A stretch of 63,647 bases of DNA, the filler included, from a bacterium (GTDB taxonomy: Bacteria; JBDRGX01), in NCBI GenBank assembly GCA_043817485.1. It is 7 parts of 7 records of this genome, joined end to end, with 100 filler letters (N's around TTAATTAATTAA, not from the genome) between each part and the next. Parts side by side here need not be neighbours in the genome. Positions count along the whole stretch, not along the records: positions 29,688 to 48,756 come from JBDRGX010000084.1; 6 more parts are not named here. The stretch is one strand, 5' to 3'. The stretch's first letter is position 1, and every line of letters begins with the position of its first letter. Both the position numbers and the translations under genes were made by a program. Below, piece after piece: positions 6,521 to 61,671 of the stretch. The notes beneath the pieces were generated by a model. The model did not search any database. It was not told where the DNA came from and worked only from the letters and a program-made list of their open reading frames with translations.

Positions 6521-6620
6521 NNNNNNNNNNNNNNNNNNNNNNNNNNNNNNNNNNNNNNNNNNNNTTAATTAATTAANNNNNNNNNNNNNNNNNNNNNNNN
6601 NNNNNNNNNNNNNNNNNNNN
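6521..6620. other. Artificial contig linker; the others are at 18539-18638, 26266-26365, 29588-29687, 48757-48856 and 61448-61547
   Basis: Identical N44-TTAATTAATTAA-N44 spacer with stops in all six frames. Confidence 0.98.
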
Positions 6621-18204: not shown

Positions 18205-18638
18205 AATTATATCCTTTATTTATTAAAACATTTTCTTATTTTTTTGTAGGAAAATTTTTGAAAAATAGTTTAAAAAATATTCTAATACTAAAAGCAATCA
18301 TTTAACTTTTTTTATAAAAATAAAACTTTTTTTAAATTCTAATAAAAAAGCATTTTTAATTCCATATTTTTTGATATTTTCAATAAAGCACATTGAAAAA
18401 AAATATATTTCATATTTCCATTTATTTAACCAATATCTAATAAATAATGACTCGTTTCGTTTAGCACTTTTTACTATAATACTTTCTACTTTTTGTTCAG
18501 AAAGAATATCAGGATATAAAGAAAAAATATTAAGATTANNNNNNNNNNNNNNNNNNNNNNNNNNNNNNNNNNNNNNNNNNNNTTAATTAATTAANNNNNN
18601 NNNNNNNNNNNNNNNNNNNNNNNNNNNNNNNNNNNNNN

Positions 18639-26265: not shown

Positions 26266-26365
26266 NNNNNNNNNNNNNNNNNNNNNNNNNNNNNNNNNNN
26301 NNNNNNNNNTTAATTAATTAANNNNNNNNNNNNNNNNNNNNNNNNNNNNNNNNNNNNNNNNNNNN

Positions 26366-27033: not shown

Positions 27034-29061
27034 TTAAAAACCTATATTTATTCCTGTTGAAATACTTCTTCCAGGCATTGGATAGCCAGGTTTTTCTTGA
27101 TATATTTTATTAAATAAATTTTCTGCTTTTAAATTGATATTCATATTTTTTGTTATTTTATAAAGTAAAGATAAATTTGCAATAGTAAAATTTCCATATT
27201 CTATTTCACTTTGATTTACATAAATTTCAGAATATCTATTAGTTTCTTTTATTTTTCCTAAATGTCTAAAATAAAGATTTCCATTTAATTTTTCATCATT
27301 ATATTCTATGCCATAATTTAATTTAATTTTAGCTACTCTGTAAATATCTTTATTTATAGTAATATTTTTTGCTTTAAGCAAATAAGTAAGATTAGAATAT
27401 ACTTCAATTTGTTGAGCAATATTAAATATTTTTCCTAAATTAAAAGATAAAGTATTTTCAATTCCAATTATTTCAGATTTAGTAATATTTTCAAAAGTTG
27501 CTTCTGTTTTATTAATTTCTATTTTTTCTATTTTATCTTTAATATTAGTATGAAAATATGTAATATCCATATTTAATAATGAATTAGTAAATTCACAACC
27601 AGTATCATAACTTAAACTATTTTCTGGTTTAATATTTGGATTTCCTTTAACAATTTGTTTTTTTGATGTATCATAATAATAACCTGCTTTTTGATTAGGA
27701 TTAGGAACAATAAAAGCTGTACCTATTGAAGTATGAAATCTAATAGTATTAGTAAGGTGATATACAATTCCACTACGAGGGTTAAAACTATTTATATTTT
27801 CTTTTCCTGCCTTAGTTTTAATATTAGTAAAATATGGAGTTTCAAGTGTTTTTAGGTTGTAATTATCATATCTTGCACCGAGTGTAGTAATAAGTTTTTT
27901 TTCAAAAAAAGATAATTTATTTTCAGCAAATAAAGCCCAATTTTCTTTTCCATTATCTGGTTCATAAGGAGAAATTCTATTACCATTACTTTCATATCTT
28001 TCACTAACATTTTTATTTTGGTTATAATCTATTCCAAAAGTTAATTCATTATTAGACATAAATATTGTATTTTGAGTTTGGATACCAATATAATCTGTGA
28101 ATTTCAACAAAGATTTATAGTATTTATTTAATTTATCATCAAAAGTAAGATTATTATTTTTATTTTTTATTGTAAAAACTTTTATTAACCAATTGTTTTT
28201 TTCAGTTTTGCCTTTATAAGAAAATTCTACTGAATTATGATATAAATCTTTTTTAGCAGGTTCATTTTTAAAAATACTTCCAGCACTTTTAATATCTTTT
28301 CCTGTAAATATTTCATATTTTAAATTTAGATTATGATTTTTATTAATATCATAACCCAATCGTAAAGCATTATTCAAATTATTAAAACTATTTTCTTTCC
28401 AAACACCTTCATTCCAATTAAAATTTCCAACTGTAAATTTTGGTACTTTATAATTATTTTGAGTAATATTAGCAAAACTAATATCAAAATTAAAATTTTT
28501 AATTGAACCACCACTTGTTAATTCTACTTGTGAATTAAAATTTCCTACTTGTGAATTAAAATTTGTTTTAATTTTTCCACTATTTTTTTTAGTAATAATA
28601 TTAATAACGCCAGCCATTGCTTCGGCGCCATATAAAGAAGAAGCAGGACCTTTTAATATTTCAATTTTTTCTACATTTTGTAAAAGAATAGTAGAAAGAT
28701 TTGTTATTCCAGAATTTCTTCCATCAATTAAAAGACTATAATGCAGTGTCTCTGTCATAAAATCTGGAGTAAATCCACGCAAATTAACTGTACTTAATAC
28801 TCCTGGATATTTAATTATATCTATATTGGTTTTTTTTACTAAAATATCATCAAGAGTACTTGCTGTAAATTTTTTAATATCATCTTTAGTAATTATTTCA
28901 ATTGTTTGTGGAACATCAGATTTTTTTGATTCTATTCGTTGAGCAGTAATTACAACTGGATTGAGTTCATAAGCAGTAATTTCTTCGTTGTCTTTGGACC
29001 AACTATTAATAATAGAAAATAAAATAAATGCACATATAAAAAATAAGTTCTTTTTAGCCAT
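27034..29061 (-). CDS. TonB-dependent outer-membrane receptor, probably BtuB-like (corrinoid uptake)
   Basis: Signal peptide, VVITAQR, LRGF, LIDG, IEILKGPASSLYGAEAMAGVINIITK plug, GNPNIKPE, ENLFN, C-terminal F; cobalamin riboswitch upstream. Confidence 0.92.
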   Translation of the reverse strand: MAKKNLFFICAFILFSIINSWSKDNEEITAYELNPVVITAQRIESKKSDVPQTIEIITKDDIKKFTASTLDDILVKKTNIDIIKYPGVLSTVNLRGFTPDFMTETLHYSLLIDGRNSGITNLSTILLQNVEKIEILKGPASSLYGAEAMAGVINIITKKNSGKIKTNFNSQVGNFNSQVELTSGGSIKNFNFDISFANITQNNYKVPKFTVGNFNWNEGVWKENSFNNLNNALRLGYDINKNHNLNLKYEIFTGKDIKSAGSIFKNEPAKKDLYHNSVEFSYKGKTEKNNWLIKVFTIKNKNNNLTFDDKLNKYYKSLLKFTDYIGIQTQNTIFMSNNELTFGIDYNQNKNVSERYESNGNRISPYEPDNGKENWALFAENKLSFFEKKLITTLGARYDNYNLKTLETPYFTNIKTKAGKENINSFNPRSGIVYHLTNTIRFHTSIGTAFIVPNPNQKAGYYYDTSKKQIVKGNPNIKPENSLSYDTGCEFTNSLLNMDITYFHTNIKDKIEKIEINKTEATFENITKSEIIGIENTLSFNLGKIFNIAQQIEVYSNLTYLLKAKNITINKDIYRVAKIKLNYGIEYNDEKLNGNLYFRHLGKIKETNRYSEIYVNQSEIEYGNFTIANLSLLYKITKNMNINLKAENLFNKIYQEKPGYPMPGRSISTGINIGF

Positions 29062-29087
29062 TTTTACTCCTTTCGAGAATACTTTCC

Positions 29088-29185
29088 AAAATAAGTAATA
29101 GACCGGGCTACTTAAAATTTTTTAAGATTACCGTTGCGAGGCAGCATTGGAATTTCACCAAATTTCCTTTACTTAATTGGTTTTT
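29088..29185 (-). promoter_or_regulatory. Cobalamin riboswitch (short variant); boundaries approximate
   Basis: Minus strand AAAGGAAATTTGGTGAAATTCCAATGCTGCCTCGCAACGGTAA-[CTTAAAA hairpin]-TAGCCCGGT matches the B12-element core (AGGAA..GGTG.AA.TCC...C.G...CGCAACGGTAA...AGCCCG), directly 5' of the receptor. Confidence 0.85.
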
Positions 29186-29354
29186 GGCTGTTTATGAAGC
29201 TGTTTTATCGAAAAATTATAACATAATATTTTTATTTTATTTCCTCCTTTTTTAATTTAAAAAACTGTTTAGTATTTGTAGACCTCTATAAATAGACCAT
29301 AATTTTTTGAATCATCACCTTTTTAATATTCTGTAAAAAAAAATCATAAACAAA

Positions 29355-29430
29355 TGGTGGAGGATAGGGGAATTGAACCCCTGACTTCTACTATGCGAAA
29401 GTAGCACTCTACCAGCTGAGCTAATCCCCC
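29355..29430 (-). tRNA. tRNA-Ala (CGC)
   Basis: GGGGGATTAGCTCAGCTGGTAGAGTGCTACTTTCGCATAGTAGAAGTCAGGGGTTCAATTCCCCTATCCTCCACCA; G3:U70 pair, anticodon CGC. Confidence 0.95.
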
Positions 29431-29587
29431 TTCTTTTTTAATTTTAATTTTCCTTCTTTAATTTCATTTAAAGCTATATATATTTCATTTTTTAATTTTG
29501 TATTTATTAATGGTCTTGCACCATCTTTTATTTTTCGTGCTCTTGCAGCTGCTATAAGAATTAATTCATATTTATTTCTATCAGGAT
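29421..29587 (-). CDS. rpoZ: RNA polymerase omega subunit, 5' end lost at the contig end
   Basis: Manual translation PDRNKYELILIAAARARKIKDGARPLINTKLKNEIYIALNEIKEGKLKLKKKGD*, with the omega motifs NKYEL..AA.RAR and AL.EI.EGK. Confidence 0.88.
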
Positions 29588-29688
29588 NNNNNNNNNNNNN
29601 NNNNNNNNNNNNNNNNNNNNNNNNNNNNNNNTTAATTAATTAANNNNNNNNNNNNNNNNNNNNNNNNNNNNNNNNNNNNNNNNNNNNT

Positions 29689-31755
29689 TATGTTCAGAGA
29701 CGCAAAGAAGATGATAAAGAAAAATCAAAGCGTAAATCGCAAGGAATTTATTACACACCAAAATACATTGTTGAATTTATTGTCAAGGAAACTTTAGGTG
29801 AGGTTTTGAAAAAAACAAAGCCAAAAGAAATTTCTAAAATTAAAATACTTGACCCTGCTTGCGGTTCCGGGTCATTTTTAATTGCTGCATATGATAAAAT
29901 TTTGGAAACTTTAACAAAACAAAATTCACAAACTTCGCTTTTTACTAAATTCGATATTCTCAAAGATAATATTTATGGTGTAGATTTAGATGTTCAAGCA
30001 ATTGAAATTGCTCAATTAAATCTTTTGCTCAAAGTTTTATCGCAAAAAACAAAACTACCAATACTTCAACATAATATCAGTTCTGGAAATTCGCTTGTAT
30101 CTGGTAATGCTGAAAAATTGGAAAAATATTTTGGCGAAAAATGGAAAGAACAAAAACCATTTAATTTTGAAACTGAATTCAAAGAAGTTTTTGAAACAAA
30201 ACTATCAAAATTTCATCATCTTATTTTTGAGACAAAATATTCGCGACAAAAAAGCAAAGATAAAAATAATACGGTAGTAATTTTAGAAGATATGGACAGA
30301 TATTTGTTAGCAGAGTGTATTTTTAAATCAGTAAAAAAACTCGGTATTAAACTTTTTGCTGGAACAATTCTTCCTGATCATGTACATTTGGTTATTGCAG
30401 ATATGGGGGAAAATATAGAGGAAATAGTTAATCAAATCAAAGGGTATGGTGCTTTTGTGGTAAACCGAACCCTTAAGGATTCGGTTGAAGGAGAAGGACG
30501 ACAACAACATCTTTGGGCAAAAGGTTGTAGCGATACTTTTCTTGATGATGAAAAACATCTTTTTGAAGCGATTGAATATGTAACAAATAATCATCTTAAA
30601 CATGAGGATACATGGGGAAAAATTGATAATGTTAAAATTCAAAAAAGTTTAGCACCATTTTTGTATGATATAAATAAATTTCAATGGTCAGATTTTGAAT
30701 ATAGCAAAGGTGGTTTTGATGTCATTATTGGCAATCCACCGTATGTGAACATGCAGTTATTGGAAAGAGATGAGATTGGTTTTTATAAAGATAATTTTGT
30801 TGTTGCAAAGCAATATTTTAATTTATTTGCTTTATTTATTGAAAAATCTTTAAGACTCTTGAGAAATGACGGGTACTTTGGTTTTATTGTGCCGAGCTTG
30901 TTCTTGAAAGGAATGCAATACGAACCTCTAAGAAAGTTGATAAATGCTACTGCTTCAGAGTTTTACATAAATGAACTAGGAGACAATGTCTTTGAGAATG
31001 TAAAAATGCCTACCTGTATCTTTGTCATTAAAAAGGGTGTAAATAAAAAGAAGATAAATTACTTTGCACAACAAGGCATCAATATTTTTTCGGCTGACAA
31101 GACAGTAAGTTTAGGAAGCATAACAGATATTACAAGGGGTTTAGAAATTGGGAGAGACAAATTAAGTAATGCTGATGCAATTGTATGTATAACTGGAAGC
31201 AATATTGAGCCATATAGCATAAAGAGCAAGAGGTATATTTCAAGGGATACACTGAAGGAGTTTAATAAATCATCAGAAATCTTTGCTGTTCCTAAAATCT
31301 TGGTAAGAGAAACAGGAAATGCCATTGTGGCTACTTATGATGATAAAGGTATTATTACGACACGAAGTTTATACAATGTAAGGATAAAGGACAAAAGCTA
31401 TTCACTGCTTTATATTTTGGCTCTCTTGAATTCAAAACCATATAAATATTATTTCAAAAGTTTCATTGTCCCAGATACAAATATTTTCCCAAAAATCAGG
31501 GTTGAGCAAACAAGACGGATACCAATTTATAAAATAGATTTTTCCAACCCCGCTGAAAAGACAAAACACGATGGACTCGTCTCCATTGCCGATAAAATGC
31601 TCAACCTCCATAAAGAACTTCGGAAGACATCAGAAAATACTGATAGATGGTATGTATTAAAATCTGAAATTGAAAAACTTGATAGCGAAATTGATGAGGA
31701 GATTTATAAACTCTATGGACTTACAACAGAAGAAATTAAAACAATTGAAACTTAA
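29689..31755 (+). CDS. Type IIG / Eco57I-like N6-adenine DNA methyltransferase with TaqI-C-like specificity domain and an inserted Y1 HUH transposase-like domain; 5' end truncated
   Basis: Frame open from 29689: GIYYTP, ILDPACGSGSFL, IYGVD, GNSL, GGFDVIIGNPPY, LALLNS, IDEEIYKLYGLTTEEI. Insert at about 30193-30708 carries PDHVHL. Confidence 0.9.
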   Translation, partial: YVQRRKEDDKEKSKRKSQGIYYTPKYIVEFIVKETLGEVLKKTKPKEISKIKILDPACGSGSFLIAAYDKILETLTKQNSQTSLFTKFDILKDNIYGVDLDVQAIEIAQLNLLLKVLSQKTKLPILQHNISSGNSLVSGNAEKLEKYFGEKWKEQKPFNFETEFKEVFETKLSKFHHLIFETKYSRQKSKDKNNTVVILEDMDRYLLAECIFKSVKKLGIKLFAGTILPDHVHLVIADMGENIEEIVNQIKGYGAFVVNRTLKDSVEGEGRQQHLWAKGCSDTFLDDEKHLFEAIEYVTNNHLKHEDTWGKIDNVKIQKSLAPFLYDINKFQWSDFEYSKGGFDVIIGNPPYVNMQLLERDEIGFYKDNFVVAKQYFNLFALFIEKSLRLLRNDGYFGFIVPSLFLKGMQYEPLRKLINATASEFYINELGDNVFENVKMPTCIFVIKKGVNKKKINYFAQQGINIFSADKTVSLGSITDITRGLEIGRDKLSNADAIVCITGSNIEPYSIKSKRYISRDTLKEFNKSSEIFAVPKILVRETGNAIVATYDDKGIITTRSLYNVRIKDKSYSLLYILALLNSKPYKYYFKSFIVPDTNIFPKIRVEQTRRIPIYKIDFSNPAEKTKHDGLVSIADKMLNLHKELRKTSENTDRWYVLKSEIEKLDSEIDEEIYKLYGLTTEEIKTIET
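30193..30708 (+). mobile_element. Y1 HUH transposase-like (IS200/TnpA-REP-like) domain embedded in frame
   Basis: FHHLIFETKYSR...ILPDHVHLVI (HUH at 30379-30387)...IVNQIKG...HLWAKG...AIEYVTNN (Tyr at 30577): the motif order of Y1 transposases. Confidence 0.8.
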
Positions 31756-31948
31756 ATTATAAGTAAAACATTGACATTAATCAATCTAAAATAGACTTAT
31801 TGAGAAACAAGTCTATTTTAAATTGAGAATATTAGATTCTTTTAATCCAAAATCTGAAATTTTATATTATTTTACTTTTGATTGTAAATTGGTATTATAG
31901 CAAATTACAAATTTTTTTTGCATAATTTAATAAAAAAGGAATTTTAGA

Positions 31949-33418
31949 GTGGAATCTTCTAAATCTATATCTTCTTTATCAATAAAAAATAGTTTTTGGA
32001 ATTTATTTGGATATTTTATAAGAAAAATTGTTGGAACAATATCTTTTATTATCTTGGCTCGAATATTATTTAAATCTGATTTTGGACTTATTAGTGCAGT
32101 TCGGGTATTTTTAGATGCAGTTTTAATAGTTAGAGATATGGGTTTTTCTGCTTTTTTAATTTATCAAAAAAATGACACAAAAAATACTGCTAATTTAATA
32201 TTTTTTTTTAATATTTTTTCTGCTTTTTTGCTTTATTTTATACTTTTTTTTTCTGCACCATTAATTGCTAATTTTTATAAAGAAGAAATTGTATCATCTA
32301 TTATAAGAACATTGGGATTACTTTTACTTATTGAATCTTTTAGCTTAACTCATCTTACTCTTTTAACAAAAGAACTTCAATTTAAAAAAAAATCTATAGC
32401 AGAAATAATTTCTACTTCTATAACTTTTATTATATCTATTATTCTTGCTTTTAAACATTATGGAATTTGGAGTTTAATTTATGGAAATCTTGTTGGATCT
32501 TTAGTAAATAGTTTTATTGTTTATTTTCTTTATTCATTTAAGCCAGTTTGGAAATTAGATTTTAAATTGCTTAAAGATATTTTTAAATATGGTTCGTTTG
32601 TGACGGGCTCTAATCTTATTAATTTTTTTAGTTTTAATATGGCTTATTTAATTATAGGTAGATTTTTAGGAATGGAAGTTTTAGCTATTTTTACAATGGC
32701 TTATAACTTGGCTAATTGGACATCTGAACATTTTATTTACATTATTTCTCGTGTTGCTTTTCCAGTTTTTTCTTTAATTCAAGATAATAAAGTAGCTTTG
32801 AAAAAAGGGTATTTGAAAATAATACAATATACTTTTATTTTTGTATTTCCAGCTATTATTGGATTATTTTTTTTAAGCAAGGAATTTGTTTTAACTGTTT
32901 ATACTGCAAAATGGATAGAAGTAATTGTTGTTTTAAAAATTCTTCTTTTTTGGAGTTTATTCCATTCTATTTTTATTTTACTTGATTCTATTTTACAATC
33001 TATTGGTTATCCTTCAGTTTCTTTTAAAATTAATTTAATGAAAATAATATTTTCTATTCCTATTTATATTTTTATTATTCCTTATGGAATTATTGCTTTT
33101 ACCATTGCTATTACTATTATTCAATTTTTATTTAATTTTGTTCTGGCTTTTAAAACATATAAAATAATAGAACTTCAGTTTATAGAAATAATAAAAATTA
33201 TTAAAACACCTTTCATCTCTGGAATTTTGATGATTGGAACTATTTTTATTTCTCGATTTATTTTATCATTTATTAAAATGCCACAATTAATTAATTTAAT
33301 TATTCTTACTATTGCTAATGGCTTTTTATATTTTTTATTTTTTTATAAATTAGATTTCAATTTACTAAAAGAATTAAAAAAAATAGGGCAAAATGTATTT
33401 TCTTTTAAAAAAGTGTAA
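31949..33418 (+). CDS. wzx: Polysaccharide flippase (Wzx/WzxC-like)
   Basis: About 12-14 hydrophobic segments, ILARIL..DFG, KELQFKK, YGIWSLI, IIGRFLG, RVAFPVFS. Confidence 0.88.
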   Translation: MESSKSISSLSIKNSFWNLFGYFIRKIVGTISFIILARILFKSDFGLISAVRVFLDAVLIVRDMGFSAFLIYQKNDTKNTANLIFFFNIFSAFLLYFILFFSAPLIANFYKEEIVSSIIRTLGLLLLIESFSLTHLTLLTKELQFKKKSIAEIISTSITFIISIILAFKHYGIWSLIYGNLVGSLVNSFIVYFLYSFKPVWKLDFKLLKDIFKYGSFVTGSNLINFFSFNMAYLIIGRFLGMEVLAIFTMAYNLANWTSEHFIYIISRVAFPVFSLIQDNKVALKKGYLKIIQYTFIFVFPAIIGLFFLSKEFVLTVYTAKWIEVIVVLKILLFWSLFHSIFILLDSILQSIGYPSVSFKINLMKIIFSIPIYIFIIPYGIIAFTIAITIIQFLFNFVLAFKTYKIIELQFIEIIKIIKTPFISGILMIGTIFISRFILSFIKMPQLINLIILTIANGFLYFLFFYKLDFNLLKELKKIGQNVFSFKKV

Positions 33419-33420
33419 TT

Positions 33421-34269
33421 ATGAAAATTAGTGTTATTATTCCTACTTATAATTGTGCTCAATCTTTATTAGAAGCAATTGAAAGTGTTTTAAATCAAAG
33501 TTTTAAAGATTATGAAATTATTGTAATTGATGATGGATCACAAGATGAAACAAAAAATGTAATTGATTCTTATATGAAAAATATTTGTTATATTTATCAA
33601 CAAAATCAAGGGGTTGCTTGTGCTCGTAATCTTGGTATTAAAAAAGCACAAGGAAAATATATTGCTTTTTTAGATGCTGATGATATTTGGATAAAAGATA
33701 AATTAAAAATGCAAATAGAATGTTTTGAAAAATATCCAGAAATAGGATTAGTTTTTTCAGATTTAATTATTTTAAATGAAAATAAAGAAGAAAAAGAATA
33801 TAAAATTGGAAATTTTAAAAAAGATGTAGAGGCACTTATTCAACATAATTTTATTCCTACTTCAAAAGTAATGGTTAAAAAAGAATGTTTTGAAAAAGTA
33901 GGTATGTTTGAAAATTTTAATTTAGCAGAAGATTATAATTTATGGTTAAAAATTATTCAACATTATTCTATTTATCATATTCCTCAATGTTTAGTTAAAT
34001 ACAAAAACAAAATAAGAACAAAATCTTATTTACTTCAAACAACAATTAATGAAATAAAAATTATAAGCAATATTACTTTAAAAAATAAATTTATTATTAA
34101 AAGAAAATTAGGACAATTATTTTATATGGCTGGATTATTTTCTCATCAATTAAAAAAATATAATCAATCTCAAAAATATTTTATTCAATCAATTTTAAAA
34201 ATGCCTTTTTATTGGCGAACATATTTTTATATTTTTTTAAATTTAATTAAAAATAAAAAAGGGTTTTAG
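33421..34269 (+). CDS. Glycosyltransferase family 2
   Basis: ISVIIPTYN, IDDGSQD, ARNLG, FLDADD, EDYNLW. Confidence 0.93.
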   Translation: MKISVIIPTYNCAQSLLEAIESVLNQSFKDYEIIVIDDGSQDETKNVIDSYMKNICYIYQQNQGVACARNLGIKKAQGKYIAFLDADDIWIKDKLKMQIECFEKYPEIGLVFSDLIILNENKEEKEYKIGNFKKDVEALIQHNFIPTSKVMVKKECFEKVGMFENFNLAEDYNLWLKIIQHYSIYHIPQCLVKYKNKIRTKSYLLQTTINEIKIISNITLKNKFIIKRKLGQLFYMAGLFSHQLKKYNQSQKYFIQSILKMPFYWRTYFYIFLNLIKNKKGF

Positions 34270-34276
34270 GGTTTTA

Positions 34277-35437
34277 ATGAATATTCTTTTTATTTCTACT
34301 TTTTGTTCTTTTTGGTCTATGGGAAAAAATAAAGGTGCTGTAAGTTATTTTAATTTAATTGAAAATTTAGTAAAAAAGGGGCATAAAGTTTTTTTACTAA
34401 AACCAGAAGGAGAAAAAGAAGAAATAAATATTAAATATTTTGAAATAAAAAATCCTTTTACAAAACCTAATAAAGGATATATTTCTAATTTTCTTTTTTC
34501 TATTTTATTTTTCAAAAGAACAATTTTTTTGGGAAGAAAAATTATAAAACAACATAATATTGATAGTATTGTAGGAATTTCTTGTTTATCGGGATTAGTT
34601 GCTTATTTTTTAGGAAAAATGTTTAAAAAGCCATCTTTTACGCATCTTTATGGTATTCATGATTTTAAAATTAGTTGTTTTTTTTCTCCTTTACAAATAT
34701 TAGCTTATTTTGACATCTATTTGAATTTCAAATTTTTTAGAAATAAAATTATTTTTATTGATGATTTTACTTCTGGTGAAAAATTAAGAGAAAAATTTAA
34801 AATTCCTTTTTGTGAGTGGATATCAATTCCTTTAGGAACTAATAAAGAATGGTTTAATCAAGAAATTAAAAAAGATTTAAAAGATAATTTTAAAATACCG
34901 AAAAATACTATTATTTTAATTTCTGTAAGCAGATTATCTCATGAAAAAAGAATTTCTTTAATTATAGAAGCAATTCCAAAAGTAATAGAAAAATATTTTG
35001 ATGTATGTTTTTTAATTTTAGGAGATGGTCCAGAAAAAGAAAAATTACAACAAAAAGCAAAAAAATTAAAAGTAGAAAATTTTATAAAATTTATTGGAGC
35101 AGTAGATCAATCTGAAGTAAATTATTATTTAAAAAATTCTGATATTTTTCTTTCTTTTTATAAAGCAGATATTGGAGGTTCTTTAATGGAAGCAATGATT
35201 TGTGGGCTTCCTTGTATAGTAACAAGAAGAGGAGAAATTGATAGAATAATTAAAAACAATGAAACGGGTTTAATTGTAGAAGAAAATTTTTCAATTGCTT
35301 TATCAATTATTTCTCTTCTTGAAAATTTTCAATTAAGAAAAAAATTAGGTGAAAATTCTATTAATTTTGCTCAAAAAAATTTTCTTTCATGGACAGAATG
35401 TATTGATAGAGAAATAAATGTATTAATAGGAAAATAA
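34277..35437 (+). CDS. Glycosyltransferase family 4
   Basis: VSRLSHEKR, ILGDGPE, SDIFL, LMEAMICGLPCI. Confidence 0.9.
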   Translation: MNILFISTFCSFWSMGKNKGAVSYFNLIENLVKKGHKVFLLKPEGEKEEINIKYFEIKNPFTKPNKGYISNFLFSILFFKRTIFLGRKIIKQHNIDSIVGISCLSGLVAYFLGKMFKKPSFTHLYGIHDFKISCFFSPLQILAYFDIYLNFKFFRNKIIFIDDFTSGEKLREKFKIPFCEWISIPLGTNKEWFNQEIKKDLKDNFKIPKNTIILISVSRLSHEKRISLIIEAIPKVIEKYFDVCFLILGDGPEKEKLQQKAKKLKVENFIKFIGAVDQSEVNYYLKNSDIFLSFYKADIGGSLMEAMICGLPCIVTRRGEIDRIIKNNETGLIVEENFSIALSIISLLENFQLRKKLGENSINFAQKNFLSWTECIDREINVLIGK

Positions 35438-35571
35438 TAGAATTGTGTAATCCAAATGTTGTAAATTACCAAATTCGTATTTCGTTTTTACCAATATCCC
35501 TAAAGGGATATTTTGAAAAAATTTTTCAATGAATTTTCTTTTATGTTTAATATTTTGGGATATATAAAAAA

Positions 35572-36540
35572 ATGATTATTAAATTAGAAAAAAATATAAA
35601 TAAAGAACATTGGAACGATTTGGTAAAAAATTCTTTTTATTCTACTGTGTATCATACATGGGAATGGTTAGAATCTTTAAAAAAAACTTATTTAGATTGG
35701 GAAATTTTTTATTTAATGGCTTATGAAAAAGAAAAAATATTAGCTGGATTGCCAATAATAAAAATAAAAGAAAAAATAATTCGTTTAAGATATTTTTCTT
35801 CAATGTGGGGGAGTTATGGAGGAGTAATTGTAAGAGATGAAGAAAATTTTGATATAAAAGAAAAAATGTTAGATTATTTTAAAAATTTTTTTTCCTTTTG
35901 GAAAATAATTTCAATTGAATTAGTAGATTTTTATTCTCAAAATGAATTTGTAAAAAATATGGGATTTACAGAAAAAAAACAAATTGCTTTAATTCTTTCT
36001 CTTAATAACTCTTTAGAAGAAATATGGAAGGAAAAAATAAAATATAAAATTCGTAAAAATGTAAAACGAGCAGAAAATAATGGAATAGAAATAAAAGAAA
36101 TAACAAACATAGAAATGTTGAAAAATTGTTTTCATTTAATAGAACAAACAAATTATCGTCATAAAATGAAAAAGGTTCAATATCCTTACAAATTATATGA
36201 AAATATGTTTCTAACAATGGGTTCTCAAAATTTAATTAAATGGAATGTGGCTTTTTATAAAAAAATTCCAATTGCTTTACTTTTTTCTTTTGTATTTAAG
36301 AAAAATTTAGTTTTTTGGATAAATGCTTCTTCTCAAGAATTTTGGCAACATCGACCTAATGATTATTTGTATTGGTATCAAATTAAATGGGCTTGTTTAC
36401 AAAATTTAACTTATGCTAATTTTGGAACTACTTTAGAAAACAATGAAGAACTTATTCGTTTTAAGCAAAGCTTTGGAGCAGAAAAAAAATATTATTCAAT
36501 TTATACTTATTTTTCTTCTTTTTTAAAATTGAAGCAATAA
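35572..36540 (+). CDS. GNAT / FemAB-like acyltransferase associated with polysaccharide genes
   Basis: WNDLV...YHTWEW, YGG, RKNVKRAENNG, RPNDYLYW, FG...LIRFKQSFGA. Confidence 0.85.
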   Translation: MIIKLEKNINKEHWNDLVKNSFYSTVYHTWEWLESLKKTYLDWEIFYLMAYEKEKILAGLPIIKIKEKIIRLRYFSSMWGSYGGVIVRDEENFDIKEKMLDYFKNFFSFWKIISIELVDFYSQNEFVKNMGFTEKKQIALILSLNNSLEEIWKEKIKYKIRKNVKRAENNGIEIKEITNIEMLKNCFHLIEQTNYRHKMKKVQYPYKLYENMFLTMGSQNLIKWNVAFYKKIPIALLFSFVFKKNLVFWINASSQEFWQHRPNDYLYWYQIKWACLQNLTYANFGTTLENNEELIRFKQSFGAEKKYYSIYTYFSSFLKLKQ

Positions 36541-36596
36541 ATAATAAAATTATTGAAAATATGAATTTTAGATTAATGATTTTTTTTAGAAAATTC

Positions 36597-36625
36597 TTGA
36601 CATGATTTTTTATGTGTGCAATAAT
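36597..36625 (+). promoter_or_regulatory. Putative sigma70 promoter for rpoBC
   Basis: TTGACA (36597-36602), 17-nt spacer ending TGC, then AATAAT (extended -10 pattern). Confidence 0.5.
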
Positions 36626-36662
36626 GCTTTTTGATATTTTTATCGCGAAAATGTATTTTTAT

Positions 36663-36708
36663 TAACCAAATTAGTCTTTGGTTATTTTTTGACTAATTTG
36701 GTTTTTTT
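36663..36708 (+). promoter_or_regulatory. Terminator-like hairpin (putative attenuator) in the rpoBC leader
   Basis: AACCAAATTAGTC / GACTAATTTGGTT 13-bp perfect stem followed by Ts, 25 nt before the ATG. Confidence 0.6.
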
Positions 36709-36732
36709 CATTTAAAAGGGAGTAAAAGCAAT

Positions 36733-39700
36733 ATGTTTAAACAAAGAAAAAATTATGGAAAATTTGTTAATGCAATTGAAATCCCTAATTTGTTAGAAAT
36801 GCAAAAAAAGTCTTATGAAGAATTTTTACAATTGAATGCTTTGCCAGAAAATCGTGAAGACAAAGGATTACAAAGACTTTTTAAAACTATATTTCCAATA
36901 GAAGATTATAGTGGTAATTCAATTTTAGAATTTGTTAGTTATTCATTATCTGAACCACTTTATTCTGTTAAAGAATGTCAAATAAAAGATAAAACTTATT
37001 CAGTTCCTTTAAAAGTAAAATTAAGATTAATTATTAAAGAACAAATTTTAGAAACAAAAGAAAAAAAAATAAGAGATATAAAAGAACAAGAAATTCATTT
37101 TGCATCAATTCCTTTAATGACAGAAAATAGTACTTTTATTATAAATGGAATAGAAAGAGTTATAGTTAATCAATTACATCGTTCTCCTGGTCTACTTTTT
37201 GAAGAAAATAAAAAATCTACAGTTAAAGGTCATTCATATAAAGCTCGAGTTATTCCTTTTAGAGGATCTTGGCTTGAATTTGAAATTGGAAATCTTGTTT
37301 ATGTTAGAATTGATCGCAAAAGAAAAATGAATGCTACTATTTTACTTCGGGCATTAGGTTTATATGATTCTGATATTCTTGGCTTTTTTTATGATGTAGA
37401 AACTATTGATTTAACAAAGAATTCTTCAAGTAAATGGCTTGCTCTTTTAGAAAAAAGAATTTGTGCAGAAGATGTAATAGATAAAAAAATTGGTGAAATA
37501 ATAATTGAAGCCAAAGAAGAAATTTCTTCAGAAAAAATAGAACTTTTAAAGAAATTTAATCCAGATTATATTAAAGTTTTGCCTTTAAATTATGATAATA
37601 CTATTTTAATAACTTTGAAAAAAGATCTGTCTAAAACTCCAAGAGAATCTTTATTAGAAATTTATTCTAAACTTCGTTCTGGAAATCCTTTAATTCTTGA
37701 AAAAGCAAAAGTTTTTTTTGACAGATTATTTTTTTCTTTTACTACTTATGATTTAGGTAAGGTTGGTAGATTTAAAATAAATAAAAGATTGGGATTAAAT
37801 CTTTCTTTAGAAGAAAATCTTCTTACAAAAGAAGATATTGTTTTTGTTTTGAAATATTTAATTGGATTAAAAAATGGGCAAGGATTTATTGATGATATTG
37901 ATCATTTAGGAAATAGAAGAATACGATTAGTAGGAGAAGTAATCGAAGATAGATTAAGAAATGGTTTTGTTAGAATGCGTAGAGAAATTAAAGAAAGAAT
38001 GACTCTTCAAGAAATAGAAACTGTAATGCCAAATGTTTTGGTAAATGTCAATTCTTTAATGGCTACGATTAATAAATTTTTTAGATCTAGTGAACTTTCT
38101 CAATTTATGGATCAAGTTAATCCATTAGCTGAACTTACTCATAAACGAAGAATTAGTGCTTTAGGTATTGGGGGTATTACAAGAGAGCGTGCAGGTTTTG
38201 AAGTTAGAGATGTACATTATACTCATTATGGAAGAATTTGTCCTATTGAAACTCCAGAAGGATTAAATATAGGATTAATTACTTCATTTACTATTTATTC
38301 CAAAGTAAATGAGTTGGGTTTCATAGAAACTCCTTATTTTAGCGTAAAAAATGGAAAAGTTGATAAAACAAAAATGCATTATCTTTCTGCAATAGAAGAA
38401 GATGATTTTATTGTTGCTTCTTCTGATGCAAAAGTTAATAAAGATGATGTAATAGAAAATGAATTTGTTTTAACTCGTAATAAAGGAAATTTTTTATTAG
38501 TAAAAAAAGAGGAAGTAAATTATATTGATGTTTCTTCAATGCAACTTATAAGTTTGTCTACTTCTTTAATTCCGTTTTTGGAACATGATGATGCTAATAG
38601 AGCTTTAATGGGATCAAATATGCAAAGACAAGCAGTTCCACTTTTAAAAACAGAATCTCCTATAATTGGTACTGGAATGGAAAAAATTGCAGCAAAAGAA
38701 TCTGGTGTAATGCAAATTGCAGAAAGAGATGGAAAAGTAGTAAGAGTTTCAGGAAATGCTATTATTGTAAAAGGGATGACTAATTCTGGAAAAATATATT
38801 TTGATACTTATTGTCTACGAAAATATGAAAAATCAAATAATGACACTTGTATTAACCAAATTCCAATAGTTAAAACAGGCGATGAAGTTAAAAAAGGGGA
38901 TATTTTGGCAGATGGTCAAAGTACAAGTTTAGGAGAATTAGCTTTGGGCCAAAATGTAATAGTAGCTTTTATGCCATGGAATGGTTATAATTTTGAAGAT
39001 GCAATTGTAATAAATGAAGATGTTGTTAGAAAGGAAAAATTTACCTCTATTCATATTAAAGAATTTGAAGTTGAAGCACAAATAACAAAATTAGGTAAAG
39101 AAGAAATTACACGAGATATTCCAAATGCAAGTGAAGAATCTTTGAAAAATTTAGACAAAGATGGAATTATAAAAATAGGAACTTATGTAGAACCAGGAGA
39201 TATTTTAGTAGGAAAAATTACTCCTCGTGGACAAACAGAATTTACTCCAGAAGAAAAACTTTTAAGAGTAATTTTTAAAGATAAAGCTGGAGATGTAAAA
39301 GATGCTTCTTTGAAAGTTTCTGCTGGTATTTATGGACAGGTTATAGATGTAAAAGTGTTTTGTGCAAAAAGAAAAAATAAGGATATAAAAAAAATAGAAA
39401 AAGAAATAGAAGAAAAAGAAGCTTTATTAAAAGAAAAAATAAATTGGATAAAAAAAGAATATAAAGAAGAATTAGAAAAACTTATTTTAAATCAAAAAAT
39501 TTTATCTAATTTAATTTATAAAGATAATGTAATTATTCAAAAAAATAGTTTTATTACAAAAGAAAATATAGAACTAATTATAAAACATAAAAAAATATCA
39601 GAATTAAATTTAGAGGATTCTAAAATATCAAAAAAACTTTTAAATTTAACTACATCTGTAGAAGAATTAATTGAACAAGAAAAAATAAGTTCAAAAAAAG

Positions 39701-42700
39701 AACAAGAAAAAATGAAAAAAGGAGATGAATTATTATCTGGTGTAGATAAAAAAGTAAAAGTTTTTATTGCACAAAAAAAACGAATGGTAGTTGGAGATAA
39801 AATATCTGGTCGTCATGGAAATAAAGGAGTAATTGGAAAAATTGCACCAAGAGAAGAAATGCCATATATGTTAGATGGTAGACCTGTTGATATTATTTTA
39901 AATCCTTTAGGTGTGCCTTCAAGATTAAATATTGGGCAAATATTAGAAGCACATTTTGGTTGGGTTGCAGCTGCTTTGGGTTTTAATGTAGAAACACCAG
40001 TATTTATAGGTGCTACTTCAGAAGAAGTAATGAATACCCTTAAAGAAGTTTCTGAAAAAGAAAGAAAAGAAAAAGGGAAAAATATGCTATATACAGAAAA
40101 TGGCAAAATTACTCTTTTTGATGGAAGAACTGGAGAACCTTTTGAACAACAAATTACAGTTGGTTATATGTATATGATGAAGTTATTCCATTTGGCTGAT
40201 GATAAAATTCATGCAAGATCTTCAGGTCCTTATTCTTTAGTTACTCAACAACCATTAGGAGGAAAAGTTCAATTTGGAGGACAACGGCTTGGAGAAATGG
40301 AAGTATGGGCATTAGAAGCATATGGAGCAGCTCATATTTTACAAGAAATGTTAACTGTAAAATCAGATGATATTGAAGGTAGAATGAAAACTTATGAAGC
40401 TATTGTTAAAGGACAGAATATTCCATTTACAGGGATTCCAGAATCTTTTAATGTTTTAATTAAAGAATTACAAGGGCTTTGCTTAGATATTGAATTTAAA
40501 AATGATGAAAAAAATAAAAAAGATTTGAAAAATGATGAAAAAACATTTTCTTCTCTTCAAATAAGATTATGTTCTCCAGAAAAAATACTTTCTTGGTCTT
40601 CTGGGGAAATAAAAAAATCTGAAACAATTAATTATAGAACCTATAAAACAGAAAGAGAAGGTTTGTTTTGTGAAAAAATATTTGGACCTGTTAAAGATTG
40701 GGAATGTTATTGTGGTAAATATAAAGGAATAAAATATAAAGGAGTTATTTGTGATCGTTGTGGAGTAGAATTAACAAGATCAAATGTTAGAAGACAAAAA
40801 ATGGGACATATTAAATTAGCTGCACCAGTAATTCATTCATGGTTTTTAAAAATCAATCCAAGCCCAATAGCTAAATTACTTGATTTTAAAGTAAGTGTAT
40901 TGAAAAATATTTTGTATTTTGGAAATTATATTGTTACAAATATTGTGTCAAGTAAACAAGAAAGTATACTATTAGAAGTTAAAAAATCTTATACAAAAGA
41001 ATTAAAAAAAATAAATGAAGAAGTAGAAGAAAAAATAATTAAGTTAGAAAAAAGTTCAATTGTTGCTTTTCCAGTAAAAGATGAACAAGAAAATCAATGT
41101 TTAGATAAAGGAAAAACATTAAATTTAGAAATATTGTATGATTTGCAAAAAAAAGGAATTGAACAAATAAAAATCTATTTATTAAAAGAAGTGTTATTAA
41201 AAGAAAAAGAAGATTTTTTTGAAGAAGAAATTACAATTCAAAAAACATTAGTAGAAAAAAGTGTAGAAGAATTAATAAAAGAGTTTACTGCTGAAAAAGA
41301 AATTTTTGAACAAGAAAGAGAAAAAAATAAAAAAGAATGTAGTTTAAGATATGAAAAAATTATTCATTTAATAAAATCTTTAAAACAAGAAGATATTTTA
41401 AATGAGGAACAATATAATTTACTTTCTGATCATATTCAGGGCTTTGCTGTAATTAATTCAGGACCATTAGCAATTCAACAAATGTTGCAAAAAATAGATG
41501 TGGAAAAATTAAGTAAAGAAACAAAAGCAAAAATAAAAACAACTAAATCTGTTTTAGAAAAAAAAGAATTACTTAAAAAAGTGAAAATAGTAGAATCTTT
41601 TAGAACTTCTGGAAATAAACCAGAATGGCTGGTAATGACTATTTTGCCAGTTATTCCTCCAGATTTACGACCATTAGTTCATTTAGAAGGCGGTAAATTT
41701 GCTTCTTCTGATTTGAATGATTTATATAGAAGAATTATAAATAGAAACAATAGATTGAGCAGGTTAATGGAAATAAATGCTCCAGAAATAATACTGAGAA
41801 ATGAAAAGAGAATGTTGCAAGAAGCTGTTGATGCTTTAATAGATAATGAAAAATGTGCTAAACCAGTATTAAGTGGTGGTGCAAGACCATTAAAATCTCT
41901 TAGTGAATTAATTAGAGGAAAACAAGGTAGATTTAGACAAAATCTTTTAGGAAAAAGAGTAGATTATTCTGGTAGAGCTGTAATTGTAGTAGGCCCAGAA
42001 TTAAAAATGCATCAATGTGGTTTGCCTAAAAAAATGGCAGTAGAATTATTCAAACCATTTATTTTAAATAAATTAGAAGAAAAAGGTTATGCACAAACAG
42101 CAAAAAGTGCTAAAAGAGCAGTGCAAAAAATACGACCAGAAGTATGGGAAGTTTTGGAAGAAATTGTACATTCGCATACTATTTTGTTAAATAGAGCTCC
42201 TACTCTTCATAGATTAAGTATTCAAGCATTTGAACCAGTGCTTATAGAAGGAAATGCTATTTCTATTAATCCATTAGTTTGTTCTTCTTTTAATGCAGAT
42301 TTTGATGGTGATGCAATGGCAGTTCATCTTCCACTTTCTCCAGAAGCTCAATCTGAAAGTATGCTTTTAATGCTTTCTGTTAATAATATTTTATCTTCAG
42401 CAAATGGAAAATCAGTATTTACTCCTACTCAAGAGATGGTATTAGGATGTTATTATTTAACTAAATCTAAAAAAGAAGATAAAAAAGAAAAGAAAATGTT
42501 TTCTAATATAGATGAAGTAATATTATCTTTAGATCGAAAAATGATAAATTTACATTCTTTTATAAAAATGAAATTAAATAATGAAATAATTGAAACAACT
42601 CCTGGTAGAGTTATTTTTAATTCTATTTTTGAATCTGATTTAGATTTTGTTAATAAAGAAGTGGATAAAAATGGACTTTCTAAAATAATTATAGCATATC

Positions 42701-45448: not shown

Positions 45449-45670
45449 TATATAACGGCAAAAAATAGTTAACGAACAATTAAAAAAAAATATGCAAGTA
45501 GATGTATTTATGGATAAAGTTAAGTCGTTATATATATTAAAGCCTGAAGGGCTGATATTATTATAGCAATTATTAAATAATTACCAATTAAACCCCGAAG
45601 GGGTGACATTGTTGTTATTATATAACGGCAAAAAATAGTTAACGAACAATTAAAAAAATATGCAAGTAGA
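45449..45670 (+). repeat. Direct repeat of about 53 bp (45449-45502, 45619-45670) flanking two REP-like hairpins
   Basis: TATATAACGGCAAAAAATAGTTAACGAACAATTAAAAAAA(AA)TATGCAAGTAGA occurs twice; AGCCTGAAGGGCTGATAT and AACCCCGAAGGGGTGACAT lie between. Confidence 0.85.
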
Positions 45671-48260: not shown

Positions 48261-48670
48261 TATCCCGTTAGGGATAACATATCGGTAGAAAAAAAATATT
48301 ATCACATGATATAAATGCCGTAGGCATGATATATAAAACAAAATTCGATCCCAATTTTTTATAATGTCACCCCTTCGGGGTTAAAATTGCTTATTTTTAA
48401 TTATTTGCTATAATAATACCACCCCTTCGGGGTTAAAATTCCTTGTTTTCGGATGTTTTTGGTTTTTTTCATTTTTTGTATTAATCCCGAAGGGATGACA
48501 TTATTGTAGCATATTTGTTGCACAGTTTCAATTAAACCCCGAAGGGGTGGCATTATTGTAGGGCTGGTATGTTTCTTATCCCCCGCTGGCGGGGGTGTCC
48601 GTTAGGACAGGGGTGGAATTTTTTAATAGCAAATAATACAGTAATTTTTGCTACAATAATACCACTTTTT
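48261..48670. repeat. Cluster of REP-like hairpins (BIME-like)
   Basis: Consensus AACCCCGAAGGGGTGACATTATTGTAGC on the minus strand at about 48364 and 48406, on the plus strand at about 48483 and 48534, degenerate at about 48650; also TATCCC-gtta-GGGATA and ATGCC-gta-GGCAT. Confidence 0.85.
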
Positions 48671-48856
48671 CAGAGTTGGGATTAACTGTTTTTCTTGACA
48701 AATGATAGAATATGGCAATAATTTGTATAAATTTTAAAAATAATTTAATAAAAAAANNNNNNNNNNNNNNNNNNNNNNNNNNNNNNNNNNNNNNNNNNNN
48801 TTAATTAATTAANNNNNNNNNNNNNNNNNNNNNNNNNNNNNNNNNNNNNNNNNNNN

Positions 48857-61221: not shown

Positions 61222-61671
61222 AAAATTTCCTCCATATTGTTTTATAAATTTTAGATTTTTTGAAATAATCTTTTATATTAAAAAATAAAATTGTATTCTA
61301 TTACATAATACTTCATCTCTGTCAAGTTTTTATTTTGTCTATTAGATATAATAAAATAAAGAAATTTTTTGTATTAAAAAATTATTGACAAATTGATAAT
61401 TTTCTTAAATTATATTTAAAGTAAATTTTTCAAAAAAAATAATATAGNNNNNNNNNNNNNNNNNNNNNNNNNNNNNNNNNNNNNNNNNNNNTTAATTAAT
61501 TAANNNNNNNNNNNNNNNNNNNNNNNNNNNNNNNNNNNNNNNNNNNNTTCATTAACAAAGAAATGGTCTCAAAATCTTTAATTTCTAAATTTTTAAAAAA
61601 TTTCATAAATTTAAAATATATTTTCTATTTTCTATTGTCAATATATATTTATATATTAAAATGCGTAAAAA

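Follow-up and report, generated by a model that had tools for sequence, protein, structure and literature searches.

A RAYT-like Y1 HUH module with an internal hairpin, carried in frame within a Type IIG restriction-methylase gene

RAYTs (repetitive extragenic palindrome (REP)-associated tyrosine transposases) are widespread, and their biological role is still debated. A 63,647-nucleotide (nt) stretch of bacterial DNA (GenBank assembly GCA_043817485.1; hereafter the window) contains, on contig JBDRGX010000084.1, a Type IIG restriction-methylase gene whose product, P0001, has a RAYT-like Y1 HUH module of 172 amino acids (aa) inserted in frame within its methylase domain. The question raised by this locus is what such a domain is doing inside a restriction enzyme, and the initial annotation offered two answers: a domesticated nuclease added to a defence system, or a harmless mobile domain that lands in permissive loops. 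The evidence leans towards the second answer, since the module has free-standing twins, free and nested copies interleave in its tree, the N-half of the host is 94% identical to an insert-free protein, and a decayed copy exists. Our preferred reading, to which we give a probability of roughly 0.55, is that the insert is a semi-autonomous RAYT-hairpin element lying in frame in a permissive loop of a Type IIG methylase. We call it semi-autonomous, and not a functional component of the restriction activity, because protein and hairpin evolve as a unit, occur both free and nested, enter several host genes, and include a copy that has decayed catalytically without loss of the host frame. The window copy is one member of a widespread class.

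The module and its host enzyme

In the insert-free relatives P0004, P0007 and P0009, a protein alignment shows EF-x-x-(V/I)F followed by two residues and then GGFDV(I/V)IGNPPY. In P0001, nucleotides 30193-30708 part ...FETEFKEVF from GGFDVIIGNPPY, the frame remaining open and the length being a multiple of three. The in-frame separation of about 172 aa without a stop codon reported by the initial annotation is confirmed, and the motifs that it quoted (FHHLIFETKYSR, PDHVHL, LW and EYVTNN) are all present. The histidine codons of PDHVHL lie at 30379-30381 and 30385-30387 and the Tyr297 codon at 30577-30579, giving a predicted catalytic set of H231, H233, Y297 and N301; the residues invariant in a 16-sequence alignment of the module (A2) are S17, R18, H63, H65, K83, W108, Y129, K136 and H137.

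Both profile and fold identify the insert as a Y1 domain. The Pfam Y1_Tnp profile, with its gathering threshold at 23, gives 40.3 bits (E 4e-10) for the insert by itself and 36.7 bits for the whole protein. An AlphaFold model of the insert, made with the 16-sequence alignment, has a predicted local distance difference test (pLDDT) score of 80.6 and adopts the Y1 transposase fold; all 30 Foldseek matches in the PDB at E <= 0.001 are Y1 transposases (IS608, IS200, ISDra2 and the E. coli RAYT 4er8), and the next matches beyond this set, at E above 4e-3, are unrelated folds. The proposal that the insert stands closer to RAYTs than to IS200 also holds, REP_Tyr_transpos (NF047646) being the best-scoring named NCBIfam model at 46.9 bits against 34.2 bits for IS200, although both scores lie below their cut-offs (80, an equivalog cut-off, for the former). 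The likeness to RAYTs (TnpA-REP) comprises the Y1 HUH fold, the HUH motif with its tyrosine and a polar residue at Y+4, a usually single copy and a cognate G+C-rich hairpin. The window module differs from them in falling below the equivalog cut-off, in having its hairpin within the open reading frame (ORF) and not beside it, with no dispersed REP population found, and in lacking a start or stop of its own, so that it is translated as an internal domain.

Classification as an IS200/IS605 TnpA was considered and rejected. The module shares PF01797 with these proteins (IS608, ISDra2, IS200) and its best Foldseek matches are 2vic, 2ec2, 2f4f and 2xma, but model NF033573 reaches 34.2 bits against a cut-off of 55, the tyrosine motif is Y-x3-N rather than Y-x3-Q, subterminal end hairpins and tnpB are lacking, and there is one Y1 copy in the 63.6-kb window. 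Weak A+T-rich inverted repeats near the ends of the module (30163-30212 and 30637-30666) were treated as chance. Nor is the insert an intein, in agreement with the initial annotation, which saw no intein termini: it ends ...FEYSK before a glycine, without His-Asn, and has no Pfam Hint-domain match. None of the PADLOC defence models matches the insert, and tblastn found no match to the module in plasmid and phage collections at E <= 1e-5.

Of the host Type IIG restriction-methylase gene, the ORF covers the 3' two-thirds (Table 1), with Pfam matches to N6_Mtase/MmeI_Mtase at residues 13-120, Y1_Tnp at 177-281, Eco57I at 312-430, and TaqI_C after these. REase_MTase_IIG is the best PADLOC match, at 216 bits on P0001 and 684 bits on the full-length relative P0089, and an HSDR_N nuclease with D...EAK occupies the N-terminus of full-length relatives, carriers and non-carriers of the module alike; the assignment to a Type IIG-type enzyme is upheld on both grounds, and methylase motifs I and IV are intact, as first described. 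Its N6_Mtase/Eco57I/TaqI_C architecture and these two motifs are those of Type IIG enzymes of the Eco57I/MmeI kind, of BREX PglX/BrxX and of CamA; P0001 differs from Type IIG enzymes in the 172-aa foreign module before NPPY and in that no nuclease part lies in the window. Identity with BREX PglX was rejected (115.4 bits against an NCBIfam cut-off of 500, with BREX genes absent downstream). In a structural model of all 688 residues (pLDDT 89.3, predicted TM-score 0.72), confidence is low only at residues 1-15 and 265-271, and the best fold matches are CamA, BrxX/PglX, M.BseCI and M.TaqI (8cxs, 9ewz, 8c45, 7qw6, 1g38). Judging by this model, the methylase and target-recognition domains fold around the module and probably still function.

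The gene is cut at its 5' end. Position 29689 is the first base of a contig and the preceding joint ends at 29687; hence the frame runs into the contig edge, and neither 29689 nor the TTG at 29806, from which the initial annotation had numbered the ORF, is a start codon. The missing N-terminal part of about 326 residues, which holds the nuclease in full-length relatives, was not found anywhere in the window by tblastn with full-length relatives as query.

Table 1. Features of the restriction-methylase gene, its nested module and the contig joints, in window coordinates
Feature	Position	Strand	Basis
5'-truncated Type IIG restriction-methylase ORF, 688 codons + stop (P0001)	29689..31755	+	Open frame, profile matches, model
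N-half of gamma-class N6-adenine methylase domain	29689..30192	+	Pfam N6_Mtase/MmeI_Mtase; YYTP, motif I, GNSL, EFKEVF helix
Motif I, DPACGSGSFL	29851-29880	+	
In-frame RAYT-like Y1 HUH module, 172 aa, residues 169-340, core KFHH...FEY	30193..30708	+	Pfam, fold, ends shared with free genes
HUH motif, His231-Val-His233	30379..30387	+	Both His invariant in 16-sequence alignment A2
24-nt palindrome AACCGAACCCTT/AAGGATTCGGTT, 11/12 pairs, coding NRTLKDSV	30463..30486	+	Module's own REP-like hairpin
Catalytic Tyr297 with Asn at Y+3 and Y+4 (EYVTNN)	30577..30591	+	Tyr invariant in A2 and in all 34 aligned carriers
C-half of methylase domain	30709..31185	+	Pfam Eco57I, 112 bits
Motif IV, NPPY	30733-30744	+	
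TaqI-like target-recognition domain	31186..31527	+	Pfam TaqI_C, 84 bits, residues 500-613
C-terminal helical tail (...KLYGLTTEEIKTIET)	31549..31755	+	Family-wide conservation in alignment; helices 621-687 in model
Contig joint, gene's 5' third lost here	29588..29687	.	N44 + TTAATTAATTAA + N44
Linkers, N44 + TTAATTAATTAA + N44	6521-6620, 18539-18638, 26266-26365, 29588-29687, 48757-48856, 61448-61547		

The hairpin inside the module

The module contains a REP-like palindrome within its own coding sequence, and the loop that it encodes is the low-confidence stretch of both structural models, with pLDDT below 50 at residues 265-271 of the full model. A palindrome in the same loop is found in the window, in loci L001-L007, L009 and L070-L075; there are four sequence versions, all paired, and the encoded residues vary among them (RRFKSS, RRFKST, RTLKDS and RTLKGT). 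In a 10-row alignment, seven of 11 stem pairs are altered on both sides and 95.5% of cells are paired; none of 500 shuffles reaches the observed pairing and slid controls come nowhere near it. Synonymous recodings that pair as well number two among 27,648 for the window's eight codons, a usage-weighted probability of about 1e-5, and one to four among 27,648-41,472 for each of three relatives, and codon choice cannot explain the palindrome. As single-stranded DNA (ssDNA), the window hairpin folds at -6.9 kcal/mol (z -3.27) and those of relatives at -10.6 to -20 kcal/mol.

The initial annotation had suggested that the module might service the genome's REP-like hairpins. This part of it is not borne out, because the cognate hairpin lies within the module's own frame, no further copy exists in the 63.6-kb window, whether flanking the module or elsewhere, and five relatives have one to three copies per genome; a dispersed REP population of the module hairpin is not supported on the same counts. 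The copies that do lie outside the module include one upstream of each free Y1 gene in L002-L004, a second hairpin in L006 and L075 about 357 nt upstream, within the host ORF and in a different reading frame, and a solitary copy between two unrelated genes in genome G002. In L009 (8-60) the right hairpin arm is duplicated in frame (GTVQREGTVQGEG), and local expansion of the hairpin region is therefore possible. In other clades of this Y1 family, both free and nested (L013, L081-L085 and L091), typical CAAGGGGCTTAAGCCCCTTG repeats flank the gene on either side and number up to 12 in L083, which ties the whole family to RAYT/REP biology.

Recurrence, free relatives and junctions

An exhaustive protein search with the insert alone returned 223 cluster representatives at E <= 1e-3, and among the 150 listed, 39 are at least 450 aa long. 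Pfam scans of 41 long or intermediate matches placed Y1_Tnp between the N6_Mtase/MmeI_Mtase and Eco57I parts in 33, behind N-termini of the HSDR_N or MmeI_N/MmeI_hel kind; the rest were two Type ISP proteins, one HsdS and one CysRS/APH protein with Y1, P0203 without a Pfam Y1 match, and three repetitive proteins without Y1. Four others of the 120 best relatives of P0001 listed carry PF01797 (P0005, P0010, P0033 and P0089), all at the same place. The HUH pattern occurs in 37 of 38 nested modules. Proteins with both the HUH and NPPY patterns were assembled into a carrier alignment of 34 rows, omitting P0161, P0200, P0214, P0222 and P0254 (truncated, without NPPY), the non-methylase hosts, P0203 and P0040; every row has S-R after strand 1, HUH, K-G, L-W and Y-x2-3-N/Q-x2-3-K-H, with N or Q at Y+4 (34 of 34), and then runs directly into GGFD..GNPP.

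Locus searches were made with a six-sequence alignment (A3), a metagenome scan with the single insert protein alone having given no relative. The scan of species-representative genomes yielded 62 loci with relatives of the module; L005, L006, L008-L011, L014 and L044 are nested in ORFs of 516-1236 codons. Among the best metagenome loci checked, the module is free-standing in L070, and in L071-L075 it lies within ORFs of 719-1140 codons. On this sequence evidence, the in-frame RAYT-in-methylase arrangement recurs in many uncultured bacteria.

Identity between carriers is 50-59% in the insert core, 46-48% in the methylase N-half and 30-41% in the C-half; the core is at least as conserved as its flanks, and so the neutral decay contemplated in the initial annotation has left no general sign. 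The exception is P0203, an MmeI_N-type methylase with a decayed copy at the same site (residues ~562-708), in which PEYIIM stands for PDHVHL and EV for EY and the hairpin loop is gone; its frame is intact despite the dead module. P0040, whose N-part is 87.5% identical to that of the window protein, has an unrelated insert of ~150 aa (residues ~484-640) in the same loop before NPPY. The possibility that this insert is a decayed Y1 module was rejected (hhalign probability of 0.1% against the Y1 profile; no Pfam family), and, to judge from these proteins, the pre-NPPY loop is a likely hot spot at which whole domains insert.

The closest relatives of the module in the species-representative genomes are free-standing ORFs of 166-172 aa in L001-L004, 62-63% identical by tblastn over residues 3-170 and 67% over 135 columns; a word-index search at free-standing lengths added one cluster, P0271, of 172 aa and 64% identity. 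The free genes in L001-L004 start M-A/S-K-F-H and finish W-D-D-F-E(-Y), and the insert runs from S-K-F-H-H to W-S-D-F-E-Y. The left edge of the nested copy in L071 (P0005), GAAAAAATGTCA (...EKMS-NFY), resembles the AAAAAATG(G/T)CT start region of the free genes, and the free-gene stop (TAA/TAG) is a one-base variant of the TAT that is read through in nested copies and in L002 and L070. In L002-L004 the free Y1 gene follows lon and pckG. Differing unannotated ORFs, of 241 aa in L002 (7203-8001) and 306 aa in L003 (4270-5286), abut the Y1 start, wedged between it and the upstream hairpin copy, and no ORF is present there in L004; Pfam gives no match to the former and a sub-threshold HEPN_Apea match only to the latter. 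The slot upstream of the free Y1 gene may, on this comparison, be a variable cargo slot.

Comparison of homologs with and without the insert, a check suggested with the initial annotation, shows that the window's flanks match insert-free proteins up to both boundaries. Over 122 columns the N-half shares 94% identity with P0018, which has no insert, and it is 86-88% identical to P0009 and P0040, both without a Y1 insert, and the C-part is 78% identical to insert-free P0003. Among the 120 matches listed, 77 cover the N-part only, at 65-89% identity, and PF01797 is present in none of them. The residues bordering the module on the left and right (KPFNFETEFKEVF and GGFDVIIGNPPYVNMQLL) follow the insert-free pattern, unlike the FDWEKEFPEIF of other carriers. 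The simplest account of these sequences would be a precise gain of the module in the window's lineage. P0003, the closest relative (554 aa), has an in-frame stretch ...IARDRVPKQSPLLEIATPEPALSDETRLLRLARNDTSEGARND... between GNLLIS and QKYFG that is absent from other family members and that looks like a translated palindromic repeat element.

A quick maximum-likelihood tree built from 59 Y1 cores, 36 of them nested and 23 free, requires at least nine changes of state, three of them forced by starred branches, against a shuffled mean of 18.5. The window core groups with L001-L004 and P0005/P0033 with support of 87, not starred, and the copies from Type ISP and HsdS proteins are placed among those nested in methylases, with weak support of 81-84. 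In a FastTree of the host N-half (143 rows: 29 carriers and 114 non-carriers, P0003, P0137 and P0183 having been dropped for want of the motif), the carrier state changes at least seven times, two of these changes being forced. P0001 is itself a mosaic, with a P0009-like N-part and a P0003-like C-part, and in P0005, P0010 and P0033 the N-part plus module are 95-100% identical and the C-tail 97-98%, with methylase-C and target-recognition segments only 30-42% identical; this pattern is suggestive of exchanged specificity cassettes, with the exchange beginning directly behind the module. A comparison of L071 with L073 shows six changed codons in the module, three of them synonymous, and 25 in the N-part, of which 13 are synonymous and 12 non-synonymous, too few to interpret.

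Public reads comprised six runs, of which four hold any of the stretch, at shares of 0.05-0.10, all groundwater metagenomes kept as contigs. In these low-share contigs the left junction is bridged by none and the right is crossed by one 85-nt piece (30661-30745, 11 differences); the read search returned no joints. Many public contigs match from 30706-30709 onward only, and represent other methylases at the conserved GGFDVIIGNPPY.

The window as a whole consists of seven contigs joined end to end by six linkers, so that genes are cut at the linkers and neighbours across them are not linked. A tRNA-Ala (CGC) gene at 29355-29430 on the reverse strand ends the preceding contig and is unlinked to the restriction gene, the joint lying between them. 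G+C content of the whole restriction gene is 0.27-0.34 in 300-nt windows against ~0.18-0.25 in flanking genes, as expected for a horizontally acquired gene; that of the module is not distinct from the gene's 3' half. Downstream genes resemble those of polysaccharide synthesis (flippase, glycosyltransferases), judged by eye from ORF translations only. A small hairpin repeat, TTAAACCCCGAAGGGGTGACATT, occurs on the same contig in four copies, as two pairs with members about 51 nt apart (45534-45615 and 48477-48559). The CCCCGAAGGGG hairpins at 45.5 and 48.5 kb were considered as partners of the module and rejected, their sequence differing from that of the module hairpin and no link being found.

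Competing explanations and implications

The unit that we envisage would be a Y1 HUH ssDNA endonuclease of ~165 aa with a REP-like hairpin in its coding sequence, nested in a predicted surface loop just before strand beta-4 and NPPY. The window copy has no start codon of its own and so can be made only within the restriction enzyme, as one of its internal domains. Given the conserved catalytic residues and the covarying hairpin, the Y1 domain probably acts on ssDNA at its own hairpin; cutting and rejoining of ssDNA at or near that hairpin would underlie the spread of the module, and the methylase would tolerate its presence. Several observations weigh against this account. The branches that part free from nested forms in the 59-core tree are mostly weakly supported, and many of the short 'free' database proteins could be gene fragments. 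A near-identical pair of empty and filled genes was not found, the best insert-free relative among the 120 matches listed being 65% identical. The hairpin does not look like a dispersed family (one to three per genome in five relatives); the single copy lies ~270 nt from the module's left end and ~220 nt from its right, unlike the subterminal hairpins of IS200/IS605, and convincing hairpins were sought at the module boundaries and not found. Moreover, 33 of 33 methylase hosts carry the module at one loop, where random insertion filtered by tolerance predicts several sites, so that something more must be invoked: a preferred target, a single old insertion or a functional tie to the methylase.

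Such a functional tie is the substance of the rival reading that we consider rather unlikely, though the least so of the three set out here, in which the Y1 HUH domain has been co-opted and adds nicking of ssDNA or hairpins, or DNA tethering, beside the base-flipping NPPY pocket. Such a domain might act against ssDNA phages, against plasmids that replicate by rolling circle or against conjugative strands entering the cell, or might control the enzyme's own gene through the hairpin. The single site before NPPY in 33 of 41 long matches, the presence of the module in two further restriction families (Type ISP and HsdS), a core as conserved between carriers (50-59%) as the methylase flanks (30-48%) and the fact that the window copy can be expressed solely as part of the enzyme all agree with co-option, and the retention of catalytic residues in 37 of 38 nested copies can be read as host benefit no less than as selfish activity. 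Yet the protein-hairpin pair is equally conserved in free genes that have housekeeping neighbours and no methylase in the vicinity, and a defence role leaves the position of the cognate hairpin within the module's own ORF unexplained. The host's closest relatives on both sides of the insert lack the module, the catalytically dead copy of P0203 is tolerated, and none of PADLOC's defence models fits the insert.

The identical insertion site could also reflect one ancient fusion into an ancestral Eco57I-type methylase, now immobile, with patchiness produced by segment swapping and losses and with free genes as fission products. The visible mosaicism of the family (P0005/P0010/P0033, and the P0009-like and P0003-like parts of P0001) and the mere two or three state changes forced by starred branches can be read this way; we nevertheless regard it as improbable, given that recombination would need to fall exactly on both boundaries to leave flanking residues of the insert-free type, and that the module is also present in Type ISP, HsdS and a non-restriction protein. 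Free genes, moreover, keep a start, a stop and an upstream hairpin copy, their positions by lon and pckG are conserved in three genomes, and the intergenic hairpin copy in G002 is solitary. An assembly chimera, with a Y1 gene placed inside a methylase gene by faulty joining of a metagenome-assembled contig, might be suspected from a record of short contigs, a gene touching a contig end, and the absence of any public run holding at least half of the stretch's sampled words. The same in-frame junctions, however, recur in independent assemblies (L005, L006, L008-L011, L014, L044 and L071-L075) and in dozens of protein clusters, the frame is open and a multiple of three, and the protein is modelled as one confident fold; we therefore hold an artefact to be very improbable.

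Full-text literature searches found no description of a RAYT unit nested in a restriction-methylase. According to the TnpA-Y1 classification paper (Quentin et al. 2018, PMC6006769), proteins longer than expected were discarded. The nearest published analogue found is the ShiLan-type non-splicing insertion (Arsenault, Gosselin & Gogarten 2025, PMC11855218), likewise a selfish, nuclease-bearing insert, which interrupts the DNA methylase of a phage without closing its reading frame and is proposed to protrude as a loop from the folded protein. There an HNH nuclease lies in another frame and the host is a phage gene, whereas here a Y1 HUH domain lies in the host's own frame together with a DNA hairpin. 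The components of the nested RAYT-hairpin class, namely the Y1/RAYT family and Type IIG enzymes, are known, and the arrangement is apparently undescribed in print.

More tentatively than for the locus itself, it is possible that RAYT-hairpin units constitute a class of mobile genes that are intein-like without splicing. Such genes would enter one loop of gamma-class methylases, and occasionally other proteins, as frame-preserving ORFs, would be expressed only through the host, and would rely on the internal hairpin as the site in cis at which the HUH domain cuts single strands. Since the module sits at the seam between a conserved N-half and a swappable methylase-C/target-recognition half, nicking may also drive the shuffling of specificity cassettes.

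A self-contained unit of protein plus hairpin, passing between free-standing and in-frame nested forms, would be a new way of life for HUH elements, and the nested form offers a compact, testable system of one protein and one hairpin of 24-30 nt. The pre-NPPY loop of a large methylase family appears to tolerate whole-domain insertions, which is useful for enzyme engineering, and annotators should note that 'transposase' domains in restriction genes are not assembly errors. For the restriction enzymes themselves, these observations raise the testable idea that RAYT-hairpin units may influence the turnover of restriction specificities.

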